The notes under the pieces: model-generated
Seen by the model: the letters and a program-made list of their open reading frames with translations, nothing else
Database searches by the model: none
What the model was told of the DNA's origin: nothing
Origin: a phage
Direction: 5' to 3' (one strand)
Sequence record: PX670417.1
Length of the DNA stretch: 64,000 nt
In this document: positions 47,991-53,552 of the stretch, in pieces
Layout: each line of letters opens with the position of its first letter
Position numbering within the stretch: the first letter of the stretch is position 1
Position numbers and translations under genes: made by a program

Positions 47991-48066
47991 TGGAGAATCC
48001 GAAGGGACTCGAACCCTTATAAACCTGTTTTGCAGACAGGCACATAGCCATTTCTGTCACGGATTC
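47991..48066 (-). tRNA. tRNA-Cys (GCA)
   Basis: Cloverleaf by hand: 7-bp acceptor, T-loop TTCGAGT, anticodon loop CTGCAAA, encoded CCA. Confidence 0.65.
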
Positions 48067-48070
48067 AAAT

Positions 48071-48163
48071 TGGAGGAAGATACCAGACTTGAACTGGTAC
48101 ACCGATTTCTCAGCTACTGGCAGTTTAGCAAACTGCTCCCTTACCTTTTAGGGTTAATCTTCC
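48071..48163 (-). tRNA. tRNA-Ser (GCT), type II
   Basis: Acceptor GGAAGAT/ATCTTCC, anticodon loop TTGCTAA, long variable arm, CCA. Confidence 0.65.
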
Positions 48164-48164
48164 A

Positions 48165-48899
48165 TTATTTCTGTAATGCGTTCTTCATTTCTGGTGTTGC
48201 AATAGTATCAATTACACCAGTTTTACAAGCATCATCAAACCAGTCTGGTAAGATACCTGCTAAGAACCCATTGATATTCGTTTTAAGGTACTCTGCAATA
48301 AGGGCAGCTTCTTCTTCAATCATCTGCACAACTTCATCTGCATAAGCTGTAATCTTCGAGATACCTTCATTAATCTCACTAACAGCTTGGTTAGCTAAAT
48401 CAGAAACAGTATCAAGACCTTTATCAATAGCATCTTGTAAGTCACTTAATACACCGTTAACACTGTCTAGTGTGCTGTTAATTGTGTCAATAGCTTTTTG
48501 ACCATACTCTGTAGCAACACCCATAATACCACTAAATGGTGTACAACCAACTTGCTCTCCTGCTGCACCCATAACATTGGAATATCCTTTTGCTACCTGC
48601 ATACGTGATGAAAACTCATCAATTGATTTTTGACCGTAATCTGTCAATGTCTTAGTGGTTGATGTAGTGCTTGTCAGACTCGTTGTAAAGCTGTTAAGCA
48701 GAACTGTTGTAAGTCCAGCAGCAATAAGCTTATCCTTTATTGTAGGGTCTGTTACAGAGCTAATAGAGCTTACAAGTGATGTAGAGGCAGCTACTGTTCC
48801 ACCGAGAACTGCTGCACCAGTAATAAGGGGATTAGAAAACCCTCTACCGGTTTTTAAGAGATTAAAAATCTCCTTACCTTGTTCTGTCATCTCTTTCAT
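48165..48899 (-). CDS. hypothetical protein embedded in tRNA array
   Basis: ORF track frame; start set to ATG 48899 (MKEMTEQ) so as not to overlap tRNA; Ser/Thr-rich central region. Confidence 0.45.
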   Translation of the reverse strand: MKEMTEQGKEIFNLLKTGRGFSNPLITGAAVLGGTVAASTSLVSSISSVTDPTIKDKLIAAGLTTVLLNSFTTSLTSTTSTTKTLTDYGQKSIDEFSSRMQVAKGYSNVMGAAGEQVGCTPFSGIMGVATEYGQKAIDTINSTLDSVNGVLSDLQDAIDKGLDTVSDLANQAVSEINEGISKITAYADEVVQMIEEEAALIAEYLKTNINGFLAGILPDWFDDACKTGVIDTIATPEMKNALQK

Positions 48900-48915
48900 T
48901 AAGCACCTTTGAAAT

Positions 48916-48992
48916 TGGTAGTCCAGTGGGATTTGAACCCTCTTCTCATGTTTTTCAGACACGCGCTTTAACCATATAAGCTACTTGGACTA
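48916..48992 (-). tRNA. tRNA-Phe (GAA)
   Basis: T-loop TTCAAAT, anticodon loop CTGAAAA; acceptor boundaries uncertain by 1 nt. Confidence 0.55.
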
Positions 48993-48997
48993 TAAAT

Positions 48998-49073
48998 TGG
49001 GGTGACCTACGGGATTTGAACCCGTATAGACCATGTTCACAGCATGGGTCATTACCATTTATGATAAGGCCAC
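48998..49073 (-). tRNA. tRNA-His (GTG)
   Basis: T-arm ACGGG-TTCAAAT-CCCGT, anticodon loop CTGTGAA, CCA. Confidence 0.65.
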
Positions 49074-49104
49074 ATTTAAGGACTCTCGTAAGAATCCTTA
49101 GAAG

Positions 49105-49180
49105 TGGCAGCGGCATAAGGATTTGAACCTTAATAAGACAGCTTCAGAGACTGCTGCATTGCCAGTTATGCTATACCGCT
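49105..49180 (-). tRNA. tRNA-Gln (CTG)
   Basis: D-stem GCAT/ATGC, anticodon loop CTCTGAA, CCA. Confidence 0.55.
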
Positions 49181-49185
49181 AAATT

Positions 49186-49264
49186 TGGTACTCCATATCG
49201 GATTCGAACCGATACATAACACAGATTTTAAGTCCGGCCTCTCTGCCAATTGGAGTAATGGAGC
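49186..49264 (-). tRNA. tRNA-Leu (TAA), atypical short variable arm
   Basis: T-arm ATCGG-TTCGAAT-CCGAT, anticodon loop CTTAAAA; D-loop AATTGGCAGAG shared with two other Leu-anticodon tRNAs. Confidence 0.45.
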
Positions 49265-49266
49265 AT

Positions 49267-49342
49267 TGGCGGGGGATGTTGGAATTGAACCAACTTCTTC
49301 GATTTCAAAGACCGAGGTTTTAACCTTGTAAACTAATCCCCT
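49267..49342 (-). tRNA. tRNA-Gln (TTG)
   Basis: T-arm GTTGG-TTCAATT-CCAAC, anticodon loop CTTTGAA, CCA. Confidence 0.6.
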
Positions 49343-49350
49343 TTAAATCT

Positions 49351-49908
49351 TTACTTTCTTAGTGGATGAATAAAGAATGCCAACATAACTCTTTCCCTTG
49401 AGAATGCTCTTTCTTTTGGGACAACACTTTTAAGTTTCCACCCAACATAAATTCTCCAGTAGAATTGTTTACCAAAGACTCTAATTGATGGGATAAAAGC
49501 GAATAATCCCCAAGCATTACTGTTCCACATTAGGAGATAACCTGTCTGATTATCTTCAGGGTTAGAACTTACATTGATATTACCTTTCCACTTAGTAACA
49601 TCTTTTACATCTCTTCCTAACACATGGTAAGAGAAGTTATAAGCTTTGTTTCTCCAGAGCCAACCGACTCTCTGCATATAGACACCAAGCTTACCAATCT
49701 TTCTAATCTTAGCCCATCGTTCGACATGACCTTTATCACCATCAATTGGGTTGTCGTATGTCTCCATCCATCTGAATCCGAAAGGTAAGTGGCCTTTCTT
49801 CTCACTGTAAAATGGAACTACGAAAGGTGCTAAGATAACTGCTAAGGTTGCTGCTAATGGTTCTAACAAAGCTAAGAAAATCCATGAAGCATACTTCAAA
49901 TATCTCAT
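49351..49908 (-). CDS. membrane protein embedded in tRNA array
   Basis: 185 aa; AAGAGG RBS; N-terminal hydrophobic helix IFLALLEPLAATLAVILAPFVVPF. Confidence 0.5.
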   Translation of the reverse strand: MRYLKYASWIFLALLEPLAATLAVILAPFVVPFYSEKKGHLPFGFRWMETYDNPIDGDKGHVERWAKIRKIGKLGVYMQRVGWLWRNKAYNFSYHVLGRDVKDVTKWKGNINVSSNPEDNQTGYLLMWNSNAWGLFAFIPSIRVFGKQFYWRIYVGWKLKSVVPKERAFSRERVMLAFFIHPLRK

Positions 49909-49927
49909 CTAAATAGCCTCTTTAAAT

Positions 49928-50002
49928 TGGTGCAGGATAAGGGATTCGAACCCCTATTAACAGCTCGTAGGCTGTTGCTCTATCCATTTGAACTAATCCT
50001 GC
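49928..50002 (-). tRNA. tRNA-Arg (ACG)
   Basis: Acceptor GCAGGAT/ATCCTGC, anticodon loop CTACGAG, CCA. Confidence 0.65.
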
Positions 50003-52364: not shown

Positions 52365-52460
52365 GGTCTTCTGCTCCTTTAAAGAATACTCGTAAGAACT
52401 CTTTAAGGGAGGGGCTAAATAGCCCTCTCAAAACATCATATTGAAATACTTATTATAATT

Positions 52461-52538
52461 TGGCGGTTACGAAGGGATTTGAACCCTCATCATCTCCCGT
52501 GACAGGGGAGTATTTTAACCAGATTAAACTACATAACC
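52461..52538 (-). tRNA. tRNA-Asp (GTC)
   Basis: Anticodon stem CTCCC/GGGAG, loop CTGTCAC, T-loop TTCAAAT, CCA. Confidence 0.65.
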
Positions 52539-52544
52539 TTTATT

Positions 52545-52632
52545 TGGTGTGCCGTGTAGGAGTCGAACCTACCGAGTCTCAATGACAAGGGATTTACAGT
52601 CCCCACCGCTACCATCTACGGGATAACGACAC
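52545..52632 (-). tRNA. tRNA-Tyr (GTA), type II
   Basis: T-arm GTAGG-TTCGACT-CCTAC, anticodon stem GGGGA/TCCCT, loop CTGTAAA, long variable arm, CCA. Confidence 0.65.
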
Positions 52633-52703
52633 ATTTTATTATTCTATTCAGGCTAAGGACTTGCACCTTACAAATCGGTGAGCAATCGCTTCTCTCCTAA
52701 ATT

Positions 52704-52780
52704 TGGCGGTTAGTCAGGGATTCGAACCCTGTGCCATTCGCTTAACAGGCGACCGCACATACCTTATGTGCTTCCTAACC
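52704..52780 (-). tRNA. tRNA-Asn (GTT)
   Basis: T-arm CAGGG-TTCGAAT-CCCTG, D-stem GCAC/GTGC, anticodon loop CTGTTAA, CCA. Confidence 0.65.
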
Positions 52781-52794
52781 TTAATACATTGCCA

Positions 52795-52852
52795 GACCGT
52801 GTTTTTTCTTTTATCCGCAAAAAGTAGTTTGTTGCTGAATACGGTCTTCTGC
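52795..52852 (-). repeat. spacer hairpin CCAGACCGT ... ACGGTCTTCTG (3' trailer of tRNA)
   Basis: About 10-bp stem with one bulge enclosing A/U-rich 40-nt loop. Confidence 0.45.
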
Positions 52853-52857
52853 AAAAT

Positions 52858-52934
52858 TGGAGGCGGGTGCAGGAGTCGAACCTGCCGATACCATGCTAAT
52901 GAGACATGTGAGACGCCCTTTCTCTATACCCGCA
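52858..52934 (-). tRNA. tRNA-Met (CAT), initiator-like (unpaired 1:72)
   Basis: T-arm GCAGG-TTCGACT-CCTGC, D-stem GAGA/TCTC, anticodon stem CATGT/GCATG, loop CTCATTA, CCA; first acceptor pair mismatched. Confidence 0.5.
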
Positions 52935-52935
52935 A

Positions 52936-53018
52936 TTCTTAATGACCAGACCAAATCTCTTCTTTGTCCGATTTCGTGTCAGATGAATAAGATTAAACTT
53001 GCTGTAATTGGTCTTCTG
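52936..53018 (-). repeat. spacer hairpin CCAGACC ... GGTCTTCTG
   Basis: Third clear copy of the conserved spacer stem pair. Confidence 0.45.
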
Positions 53019-53025
53019 TCAAAAC

Positions 53026-53100
53026 TGGTGTCGTAGACAGGATTCGAACCTGCGAGCAACTGATTGAAGGTCAGGTGGCTAACCATTTGCCTTCTACGAC
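53026..53100 (-). tRNA. tRNA-Glu (TTC)
   Basis: Perfect acceptor GTCGTAG/CTACGAC, T-arm GCAGG-TTCGAAT-CCTGT, anticodon loop CCTTCAA (C at position 33), CCA. Confidence 0.5.
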
Positions 53101-53101
53101 A

Positions 53102-53458
53102 TTAAATCATTGTAATTCCACTATGAACCTCTCTATGGCAATTAGCACATAGTAAAACACATTTATCAAGTTCTTTTTTAACCTTTTCCCAAGATGCACC
53201 CATAAGTTTTGATGGTGTATTCTCTTTTTCGTTTGGGTTAAGGTGATGCCATTCTAAAGCATTTTTACATTTATTATAGCCACAAATTTTGCAACTATCG
53301 CCATATAATTTATATGCTTTCTCCCTATTGGCATCCTCTCTGAGTTTCGTCCTTAATGCACAACATTTTAGACAATTTACTCTATTACCGGCGTTGCCAT
53401 TCTTATGAATGCTATGTTCAGTTAAGCCATGAACTGGGCATTCTTTTAAAAATCTCAT
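53102..53458 (-). CDS. HNH endonuclease embedded in tRNA array
   Basis: Cys pairs plus EWHHLNPNEKEN ... CANCHREVH (HNH motif); start set to ATG 53458 with AAAGGGG RBS so as not to overlap tRNA-Pro. Confidence 0.65.
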   Translation of the reverse strand: MRFLKECPVHGLTEHSIHKNGNAGNRVNCLKCCALRTKLREDANREKAYKLYGDSCKICGYNKCKNALEWHHLNPNEKENTPSKLMGASWEKVKKELDKCVLLCANCHREVHSGITMI

Positions 53459-53475
53459 AGCAACCCCTTTAAATT

Positions 53476-53552
53476 TGGTCTCTGTTGGAGGACTTGAACC
53501 TCCGGCCTTACCGCCCCAAACGGAACGCTCTACCAAGCTGAGCTAAACAGAG
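53476..53552 (-). tRNA. tRNA-Pro (TGG)
   Basis: T-arm GGAGG-TTCAAGT-CCTCC, D-arm GCTC-AGCTTGGTAGA-GCG, anticodon loop TTTGGGG, CCA. Confidence 0.65.

Follow-up and report, generated by a model that had tools for sequence, protein, structure and literature searches.

The window examined here is a stretch of 64,000 nucleotides from a phage (sequence record PX670417.1) which, judged by its sequence, is a Felixounavirus, a Felix O1-like myovirus of Escherichia coli and Salmonella. Between positions 47991 and 53552 it carries a dense cluster of transfer RNA (tRNA) genes. Within the cluster lies an unannotated RNA (51436..51630) that resembles the message part of transfer-messenger RNA (tmRNA), and a Y-RNA-like RNA and a gene for a Ro60-like protein accompany the tRNA genes. 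We located the tRNA genes with ARAGORN (default and relaxed settings) and with the Rfam tRNA model RF00005 (gathering score 29 bits). Default ARAGORN reports 25 tRNA genes in the window, every one on the minus strand and within 47991-53552, and RF00005 returns 24 sites above its gathering score (31.1-65.2 bits, E-values 6.5e-12 to 0.016). The union of the two sets is 26 genes, and an atypical tRNA-Trp-like gene brings the cluster to 27 tRNA or tRNA-like genes with 26 distinct anticodons. An initial annotation of the region had counted about 26 minus-strand genes, and the 27 names in its anticodon list are identical to those found by us. Three members stay below the RF00005 gathering score: tRNA-Tyr (29.6 bits, matched only as tRNA-Sec), the CAU gene at 52858-52934 (no match) and the Trp-like gene (21 bits, as tRNA-Sec). 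In the order of transcription, the set comprises:

53476..53552, minus strand: tRNA-Pro (UGG); ARAGORN, Rfam 57.7 bits
53026..53100, minus strand: tRNA-Glu (UUC); Rfam 55.4 bits (53029-53100), ARAGORN at the relaxed threshold only
52858..52934, minus strand: tRNA with anticodon CAU and initiator-like acceptor end; ARAGORN, no Rfam match
52704..52780, minus strand: tRNA-Asn (GUU); ARAGORN and Rfam
52545..52632, minus strand: tRNA-Tyr (GUA), long variable arm; ARAGORN, Rfam only as tRNA-Sec (29.6 bits)
52461..52538, minus strand: tRNA-Asp (GUC); ARAGORN, Rfam 65.2 bits
51927..52002, minus strand: tRNA-Lys (UUU); ARAGORN and Rfam
51846..51922, minus strand: tRNA with anticodon CAU, 1:72 paired; ARAGORN and Rfam
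51769..51844, minus strand: tRNA-Ile (GAU); ARAGORN and Rfam
51355..51431, minus strand: tRNA-Arg (UCU), reads AGA; ARAGORN, Rfam 62.8 bits
51130..51213, minus strand: atypical tRNA-Trp(CCA)-like gene; by eye, conservation and comparison with E. coli trpT
51027..51116, minus strand: tRNA-Ser (UGA); ARAGORN, Rfam 31.1 bits
50695..50771, minus strand: tRNA-Leu (UAG); ARAGORN and Rfam
50612..50687, minus strand: tRNA-Lys (CUU); ARAGORN and Rfam
50530..50605, minus strand: tRNA-Ala (UGC), G3:U70 present; ARAGORN and Rfam
50449..50523, minus strand: tRNA-Gly (UCC); ARAGORN and Rfam
50366..50441, minus strand: tRNA-Thr (UGU); ARAGORN and Rfam
50196..50270, minus strand: tRNA-Val (UAC); ARAGORN and Rfam
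50117..50194, minus strand: tRNA-Leu (CAA); ARAGORN and Rfam
49928..50002, minus strand: tRNA-Arg (ACG), 6-nt anticodon loop; ARAGORN label '???', Rfam 54.6 bits, alignment of six relatives
49267..49342, minus strand: tRNA-Gln (UUG); ARAGORN and Rfam
49186..49264, minus strand: tRNA-Leu (UAA); ARAGORN and Rfam
49105..49180, minus strand: tRNA-Gln (CUG); ARAGORN and Rfam
48998..49073, minus strand: tRNA-His (GUG); ARAGORN and Rfam
48916..48991, minus strand: tRNA-Phe (GAA); ARAGORN and Rfam
48071..48163, minus strand: tRNA-Ser (GCU); ARAGORN and Rfam
47991..48066, minus strand: tRNA-Cys (GCA); ARAGORN and Rfam

The 3' CCA is encoded in 26 of the 27 genes (the initial annotation had said "most"), the exception being Ser-UGA, which ends in GCC followed by T. 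A readable anticodon in a 7-nt loop is present in 25 genes, the other two being Arg-ACG (6-nt loop) and the Trp-like gene (a 7-nt loop closed by C:A, or a 9-nt loop). Under conservative wobble rules the set reads 45 of the 61 sense codons. The default ARAGORN calls cover 18 amino acids, tRNA-Glu makes 19, and 20 are reached only if the atypical Trp gene works. The assertion that all 20 amino acids are served is therefore borne out by the callers for 19 of them and hangs, for tryptophan, on a gene that standard tools miss. To call the complement almost translationally self-sufficient, as the initial annotation did, is an overstatement: there are 26 anticodons, Arg-ACG looks damaged, the Trp gene is atypical, and a large set is the norm in this genus. 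No synthetases or translation factors were seen in the region examined. The tRNA-Glu gene, which in the window stands beside an HNH gene and is missed by default ARAGORN, is called in relatives.

The Trp-like gene (51130-51213; 83 nt counted from G51212, 84 nt with T51213) is not called at normal thresholds by ARAGORN or by the Rfam tRNA model. Its acceptor stem is 7 bp long and includes a G1:U72 wobble, for which several relatives have A1:U72 like E. coli trpT. The discriminator is G73, the CCA that follows it is encoded, and the anticodon loop CUCCAAA is closed by a C31:A39 mismatch. The connector between its acceptor and D stems is 9 nt long (GATGTTAAG), whereas normal tRNAs have two bases there. 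This odd layout is kept in relatives, with compensatory changes in the anticodon stem (AACGG/CCGTT or GTAAG/CTTAC), the D stem (CTC/GAG or CAC/GTG) and the T stem (GGGG/CCTC or TGGG/CCTA). Two relatives have a canonical 71-nt tRNA-Trp at this site, beside an HNH gene.

The anticodon region of Arg-ACG (49928-50002) reads CCTACGAG in the window and CTACGAAG, with a normal loop, in six of six relatives. ARAGORN labels the gene '???' because one A of the anticodon loop is missing from the window copy, which leaves 6 nt; the 1-nt deletion may be either a real defect or a sequencing error. Both CAU tRNAs (52858-52934 and 51846-51922) have U73. The former shows a U1xC72 mismatch and an acceptor GCGGG like that of E. 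coli metZ and lacks the three G-C pairs of the anticodon stem (GGG/CCC); the latter is paired at 1:72 and has a partly initiator-like anticodon stem. Aligned with E. coli metZ, metT and ileX, the two genes show mixed features compatible with fMet, Met or Ile2, and the gene at 51846-51922 would be of either the elongator Met or the Ile2 type. At the site of tRNA-Arg(UCU), phage nataliec has a UCU tRNA-like gene (4856-4934, minus strand) with no D arm, a 22-nt variable region and G3:U70; it scores 31.7 bits with Rfam and is not called by ARAGORN.

The cluster is conserved. Its region matches 405 phage records, 197 of which cover at least 80% of it, and phages of E. coli and Salmonella match best, with 94-98% nucleotide identity. 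In the well-annotated phage nataliec (Ounavirinae, Felixounavirus) the tRNA order is the same and the cluster lies between the terminase and 'vWFA protein' genes. Ten related viral contigs carry 23-26 of the same tRNA genes in identical order except for the presence or absence of single genes. A genus-level comparison reported 17-23 tRNAs by tRNAscan-SE and already gave codon usage as the explanation (PMC8300805). The published counts fall below ours because Glu, Trp and the odd members escape standard tools, and since such numbers were reported genus-wide, a large tRNA set is the known norm for Felixounavirus. The cluster as such is thus already known and ordinary for Felix O1-like phages. 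Our analysis adds that standard annotation undercounts the set (Glu, the atypical Trp gene and odd variants being missed), that with the Trp gene included all 20 amino acids are represented, and that the choice of isoacceptors closely tracks the A-rich codon preferences of the phage.

For the latter point we compared 55 long open reading frames (ORFs) of the window (15,740 codons) with 41 annotated genes from 50 kb of E. coli K-12 (14,684 codons). The G+C content is 39.2% in the window and 52.0% in the E. coli K-12 sample. AGA occurs 17.7 times per 1000 codons in the phage and 1.2 times in the host, a ∼15-fold difference, and the cluster has Arg-UCU; AAG occurs 33.0 versus 12.0 times per 1000 codons, and the cluster has Lys-CUU. 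We know of no Lys-CUU isoacceptor in E. coli K-12. The synonymous fractions of CTA, GTA, TCA, CCA, ACA, GCA, GGA and TTA are 2.6, 1.9, 2.8, 2.9, 3.7, 1.9, 1.7 and 2.6 times those of the host, and the matching anticodons (UAG, UAC, UGA, UGG, UGU, UGC, UCC and UAA) are all carried. AAG is likewise enriched as a synonymous fraction, within the same 1.7-3.7-fold range. Seven family boxes have one U34 tRNA each, with the A-ending codon enriched 1.7-3.7-fold by synonymous fraction. The avoided G- or C-ending codons CTG (0.25), CCG (0.11), GCG (0.11), ACC (0.23) and GGC (0.24) have no dedicated phage tRNA. Codon bias fits the observed choice of isoacceptors.

How the genes would be expressed is suggested by matches to promoter and terminator patterns:

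53699-53671, minus strand: sigma-70-like promoter TTGACA-17-TAATAT, consensus pattern match upstream of tRNA-Pro
53608-53579, minus strand: sigma-70-like promoter TTGACA-18-TAAAGT with TG, consensus pattern match upstream of tRNA-Pro
51753-51725, minus strand: sigma-70-like promoter TTGACA-17-TATAGT, 11/12, the best match of the region, conserved in nataliec
47828-47811, minus strand: terminator-like hairpin with T run, pattern match past tRNA-Cys, the last tRNA gene

The two promoters before tRNA-Pro are the likely start of the cluster transcript. Transcription would proceed from these sigma-70-type sites and from at least one internal promoter and end at the hairpin past tRNA-Cys, and the precursor would be cut by host RNase P and 3' nucleases; with the CCA encoded in all genes but one, CCA addition would be unnecessary. 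The phage tRNAs would then supply AGA (Arg UCU), AAG (Lys CUU), TTA, TTG and the A-ending family-box codons, with a presumed benefit for translation.

We regard it as probable that this conserved Felixounavirus cluster of 27 tRNA and tRNA-like genes tops up the host pool for codons favored by an AT-rich phage. The suggestion of the initial annotation, that the set compensates for host codon usage or tRNA pools, fits the data on AGA, AAG and the A-ending codons. Several observations weigh against it. In a crude comparison of codons read and not read by the phage set, the median phage/host ratios are 1.09 and 0.63 and do not differ significantly (Mann-Whitney p = 0.28), a null result that arises because strict wobble rules leave T-ending codons, which the phage favors too, among the unread ones. 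In the two-codon boxes, the best matches of the G34 tRNAs are to codons that the phage does not favor (TGC 0.63, AAC 0.72, CAC 0.81, ATC 0.62), and codon bias therefore does not explain the representation of all 20 amino acids. An AT-rich genome and a minimal set of U34 tRNAs would also correlate without selection, and promoter-like matches are not enriched in the region (11, versus a mean of 14.2 in shuffled sequence).

What codon supply leaves over would be accounted for if the set replaced host tRNAs lost to anticodon nucleases and other tRNA-targeting defenses, or to RNA decay after host shut-off. The two roles are compatible, and evasion of such defenses, also raised in the initial annotation, is a plausible reason for the set. 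The tRNAs of T5 reportedly neutralize PARIS and retron Eco7, and mycobacteriophage tRNAs are said to resist anticodon nucleases. The anticodon loop of the phage Lys-UUU (CUUUUAA) is identical to what we take to be the host loop. Replacement of lost host tRNAs would agree with the representation of all 20 amino acids, including tRNAs for codons that are not enriched in the phage, and with neighbors linked to RNA surveillance and ribosome rescue (the Ro60-like protein with its Y-RNA-like RNA, and the tmRNA-like RNA). Of 12 phages infecting the recoded E. coli Syn61-delta-3, which lacks serT and serU (the decoders of TCA and TCG), 8 are Felixounaviruses, and infection of such a host needs a phage Ser tRNA (PMC12269064); tRNAs of the genus can thus stand in for missing host tRNAs, and this published work supports that at least its Ser-UGA tRNA is functional. 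The match to codon usage suffices, however, for most of the isoacceptor choice, and we see replacement of lost host tRNAs as a possibility worth keeping, somewhat short of an even chance. The genes might instead be mostly passengers, captured leftovers with little translational role that are kept as insertion sites for homing endonucleases. An HNH gene between Pro and Glu, a second one beside the Trp gene in relatives, and the aberrant members (Arg-ACG with its 6-nt loop, the atypical Trp gene and the D-arm-less Arg-UCU-like gene of nataliec) would suit such a history. Gene order and sequence are nevertheless conserved over hundreds of genomes, compensatory changes keep the stems paired even in atypical genes, the anticodons match phage codon preferences, and infection of the serT/serU-less host depends on the phage Ser tRNA (PMC12269064), which together make a passenger origin very improbable.

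More consequential than the tRNA set is the unannotated tmRNA-like RNA that shares the cluster with it. The ORF-free gaps of the cluster are not mere spacers: one of them holds this promoter-driven RNA, which recurs in hundreds of unrelated enterobacterial phages. Its features are as follows:

51436..51630, minus strand: tmRNA-like RNA, ∼190 nt, unannotated; sequence search, tag frame, covariation
51620-51629, minus strand: 5' block TAGTTTTCGT
51599-51620, minus strand: PK1-like hairpin
51553-51585, minus strand: tag frame from GCA to TGA, ANDNVFLAVA-stop
51538-51567, minus strand: stop-codon hairpin
51505-51538, minus strand: pseudoknot a
51471-51504, minus strand: pseudoknot b
51436-51470, minus strand: 3' hairpin, long, just before tRNA-Arg

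The best promoter match of the region (TTGACA-17-TATAGT, 51753-51725) lies directly upstream. In a sensitive search with 51100-52470, a ∼120-nt segment (51471-51594) matches unannotated DNA of unrelated phages (74-82% identity), among them Klebsiella siphoviruses, Ackermannviridae and SSU5, mostly at sites near tRNA genes. The core of the RNA reads AAATAAAT GCA AAC GAC AAT GTT TTT CTG GCA GTA GCT TGA and encodes ANDNVFLAVA-stop; the tag of E. coli tmRNA, as given by ARAGORN, is ANDENYALAA. We scanned viral contigs for the tag by an exact pattern, which itself fixed the LAV codons, and recovered at least 120 loci. Among the matches listed, there are at least 27 distinct tag sequences, all of the form AN(D/E/S)xx(Y/F)LAVA-stop and with no in-frame ATG. 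Third codon positions of the tag vary most (the entropies of codon 3 are 0.23, 0.23 and 1.52 at positions 1, 2 and 3), all four GCN codons (GCT, GCC, GCG and GCA) are in use at codon 10, and HK620 has GCC in place of GCA at codon 8, outside the search pattern. The stretch upstream of the resume codon is A-rich and has A-U-A at -6 to -4, the same as in E. coli tmRNA, whose U85/A86 at this place we take to set the reading frame.

We examined a proposed structure in an alignment of 34 representatives, with slid partners and shuffles as controls. For the stop-codon hairpin and the two H-type pseudoknots, 92.9% of cells are paired, versus 32-50% with slid partners; there are 66 double-change cells versus 18.5 in shuffles, and 10 pairs show compensatory change. 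The Rfam tmRNA families score 10-17 bits (RF00023) and 22-29 bits (RF04321) on this region and do not reach the gathering score of 47, the scores being driven mainly by the tag and its upstream stretch. A covariance model of the core gives 153 bits for HK620, 131 bits for the window and 108 bits for an E. coli H19 prophage, and only 12.7 bits for E. coli ssrA, where the match falls on the tag region.

The tRNA-like domain of tmRNA was not found. ARAGORN calls a tmRNA neither in the window nor in any of 30 representative loci, a scan for orphan T-loops within 1.2 kb of the RNA is negative in many lineages, and Rfam at E ≤ 0.5 over the whole 64-kb window gives no tRNA-like domain for it. Three candidates for the missing half were rejected. 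The RF04321 matches had suggested a two-piece (permuted) tmRNA; the nataliec alignment borrows the 3' half of the neighboring tRNA-Ile and scores mainly on the tag region, no complementary 5' strand follows, and the lambdoid copies have no tRNA upstream. The G3:U70 tRNA-like gene of nataliec, just past the tag RNA, had been considered as an alanine-accepting domain and is the D-arm-less gene with the Arg anticodon UCU. The permuted RNA at 52154-52279 has no G3:U70, is separated from the tag RNA by three tRNA genes and a promoter, and fits YrlA.

We found the tmRNA-like RNA in 628 phage records and, as part of prophages, in 137 of 5426 complete E. coli genomes. Nearly all of the records listed leave it unannotated, a few having overlapping 'hypothetical protein' calls. 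In HK620 (P22-like) it lies at 2496-2639, between the late promoter pR'/qut and the late terminator, and in the E. coli H19 prophage, the one example inspected, at 3545-3689 between the Q antiterminator and holin genes, with a different tag (ANDDVVLMAA). Since it sits in the late leader of temperate phages, it would be made constitutively in lysogens. The RNA is absent from Rfam 15, and we found no description of it, its tag peptides, or a truncated or mini-tmRNA in the openly searchable literature (subscription-only sources were not covered). As phage tmRNAs, the tmRNA Website paper names only those of mycobacteriophages and Bacillus phage G and the 'TLD-only' form of DS6A (PMC4131195). The AgvB/AsxR anti-small RNAs lie in the same prophage region and have a nearby CACAACA in common; the paper on them makes no mention of tmRNA (PMC4104026).

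Some further observations concern these copies. In four lambdoid-type contigs complementary blocks stand on both sides of the tag RNA, CAGTGCTCTTTCC 5' and CACAACAGGTAAGAGCATTG 3' of it, and the blocks covary (AAGAACACTG/CAGTGTTCTT in Carvaje). Variable inserts lie within the flanking stems, and some of them contain a T-arm-like hairpin (ATGGGTTCGAGTCCCAT). The CACAACA near the lambdoid tag RNA is the GcvB target consensus used by AgvB, a known anti-small RNA of the same region. In Shigella phage ChubbyThor, an unannotated stretch of 1.2 kb contains a ∼65-nt tRNA-like sequence (1261-1325), 230 nt upstream of the tag RNA, with a full acceptor stem, D and T arms, a stub for the anticodon arm and no CCA, not called by ARAGORN. 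The core GTTTTCG of the 5' block TAGTTTTCGT (51620-51629) is nearly invariant over lineages. All 10 nt of the block are complementary to the E. coli ssrA tag codons ACGAAAACTA, and the phage tag differs at exactly those codons; with an estimated chance expectation of ∼0.07, this complementarity is only a lead. Whole-length RNAduplex pairings of the phage RNA with E. coli tmRNA are no better than shuffles in six of seven cases. A 92-nt insertion (51630-51721, minus strand) lies between the promoter and the tmRNA-like RNA and is not in nataliec; it contains GGGG...ATTCTGAAT, which faintly resembles the 5' end of E. coli ssrA (GGGGCTGATTCTGGAT), possibly by chance.

We are highly confident that 51436-51630 encodes a genuine structured RNA with a relationship to the message region of tmRNA. 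With no tRNA-like domain it fails a defining feature of tmRNA and is not to be filed as one; it would act at most like the message half of tmRNA. The codon-level pattern of variation suggests that the tag is translated. Translation of the tag needs a tmRNA-type entry, and a tRNA-like partner in trans, either host tmRNA-SmpB or another molecule, would therefore be required. We can imagine that the tag (ANDNVFLAVA here) is translated on stalled ribosomes through such an entry module, or, alternatively, that the RNA acts as a decoy, or competes, for factors binding to the message half of tmRNA. Either way, the phage might reprogram or blunt trans-translation by the host, by which its proteins would otherwise, when stalled at rare codons, be marked for degradation. 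When a phage depends on codons that are rare in its host, translation may stall, its mRNA may be cleaved and its own proteins may be tagged for degradation; in a recoded host, tagging by tmRNA can prevent phages from propagating (PMC6207430). We put forward tentatively, and as a rather doubtful proposition, that the RNA belongs to an undescribed class of tmRNA relatives with only the message half that hijack or blunt trans-translation, and that the cluster is an RNA island directed against ribosome stalling and RNA surveillance. Members of such a message-half family would be found in Felixounaviruses, Ackermannviridae, P22-like and lambdoid phages and their prophages. If the RNA does act on trans-translation, it would link the tRNA supply of the phage to control of host ribosome rescue and protein tagging.

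A second structured RNA, also in an ORF-free gap of the cluster, and a protein gene beside the cluster belong, as far as models of their structures allow, to a known kind:

52154..52279, minus strand: circularly permuted tRNA-like RNA with YrlA (bacterial Y RNA) architecture; RNAfold minimum free energy (MFE) -34.2 kcal/mol
minus strand: closing helix of this RNA, 8 bp, AGACCGTT/AACGGTCT
52211-52227, minus strand: T arm
52193-52210, minus strand: acceptor-like stem, closed by a 4-nt loop
52176-52190, minus strand: D arm
53718..55133, minus strand: gene for a Ro60-like protein (TROVE ring and vWA), 471 aa; Pfam DUF2828 and DUF7788, PHROG 850 'RNA-binding protein'

The MFE fold of the RNA also has a variable hairpin. 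Its closed acceptor-like stem occurs in relatives in three unrelated versions, all of them paired (ACTCGGC/GTCGAGT, ACACG/CGTGT and ACCCTTC/GAAGGGT), and no Rfam family matches 52154-52279. YrlA Y RNAs have a tRNA-like layout and are encoded beside Ro60 genes in bacteria and phages (Chen et al. 2014, PMC4201824). The gene at 53718-55133 lies immediately upstream of the cluster. Searched against the PDB by sequence, its product gives no match with a single sequence and TROVE at E = 1.6 with a profile; neither is significant, so the Ro60 assignment needs a comparison of folds. An AlphaFold2 model of the 471-aa protein (predicted local distance difference test score, pLDDT, 86; predicted template modeling score, pTM, 0.87) was compared with the PDB by Foldseek, and the top nine hits, phage Ro60 included, are all Ro60/Rsr/TROVE structures matched over the full length (E-values 9e-8 to 4e-6, TM-scores 0.44-0.62). 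The protein is the probable partner of the YrlA-like RNA.

Three protein-coding genes are embedded among the tRNA genes:

53102..53461, minus strand: HNH homing-endonuclease gene; Pfam HNH 9.2e-5, PHROG 2255 1.6e-29
49351..49908, minus strand: gene for a DUF7338 protein, 185 aa; Pfam 2.2e-61, PHROG 2143
48165..48899, minus strand: gene for a DUF7217 protein ('membrane protein' in relatives); Pfam 2.3e-88, PHROG 2114, nataliec annotation

The HNH gene splits the Pro-Glu pair in the window, whereas in the ten relatives Pro and Glu are adjacent, 8 nt apart. The DUF7338 and DUF7217 genes lie among tRNA genes in every relative examined. The longest ORFs of the DUF7217 (48165-48962) and HNH (53102-53536) genes overlap tRNA-Phe and tRNA-Pro, respectively, and the true starts are therefore probably internal. 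Two ORF-free gaps (51214-51354 and 50772-51026, minus strand) are strongly conserved in relatives and fold more stably than shuffled sequence, with z-scores of -2.15 and -2.78. The motif GGTCTG is repeated at 51304, 52152, 52297, 52792 and 52946. Similar long hairpins (CTTTAAGGGC... and TTTAGAGGGC...) stand before tRNA genes and may be processing stems.

Comparison with known systems places the cluster firmly among those of Felix O1 and other Felixounaviruses, with which it shares genes, order, strand, flanks (terminase and the 'vWFA'/Ro60-like gene) and 94-98% identity. It differs from them in the HNH gene between Pro and Glu, the 1-nt deletion in Arg-ACG and the 92-nt insertion past the internal promoter. 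The tRNA regions of T4 and T5 are phage tRNA blocks mixed with small stable RNAs of unknown role and homing endonuclease genes; T4 carries eight tRNAs, and codon supply and defense evasion have been proposed as roles. The Felixounavirus cluster resembles them in its tRNA blocks interspersed with small RNAs and homing endonuclease genes, whereas the sequence relationship is limited to individual tRNAs, such as Arg-UCU. Judged by the published layout (PMC4201824), the permuted RNA has the T arm, D arm and loop-closed acceptor-like stem of YrlA Y RNAs, and a gene for a Ro60-fold protein lies ∼1.4 kb upstream on the same strand; the differences are that Pfam files the protein as DUF2828/DUF7788 and not as TROVE, and that the closing 8-bp helix is only a candidate end helix.

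With tmRNA (SsrA; RF00023, RF04321) the tag RNA shares the resume codon GCA, a 10-codon tag AN(D/E)xx(Y/F)LAVA (compare ANDENYALAA), an A-rich upstream stretch with U at -5 and A at -4, a stop codon in a hairpin loop, and downstream H-type pseudoknots. Unlike tmRNA, it is ∼190 nt long rather than 363 and has no acceptor stem, G3:U70, T arm or CCA, either in cis or, in many lineages, within 1.2 kb. Mycobacteriophages DS6A (TLD-only) and the Bxz1 group and Bacillus phage G also carry tmRNA relatives, and DS6A shows that half-molecules exist (PMC4131195). Their hosts and phage groups differ from those of the RNA described here, and whereas DS6A keeps the tRNA-like half, the RNA in the window keeps the message half.

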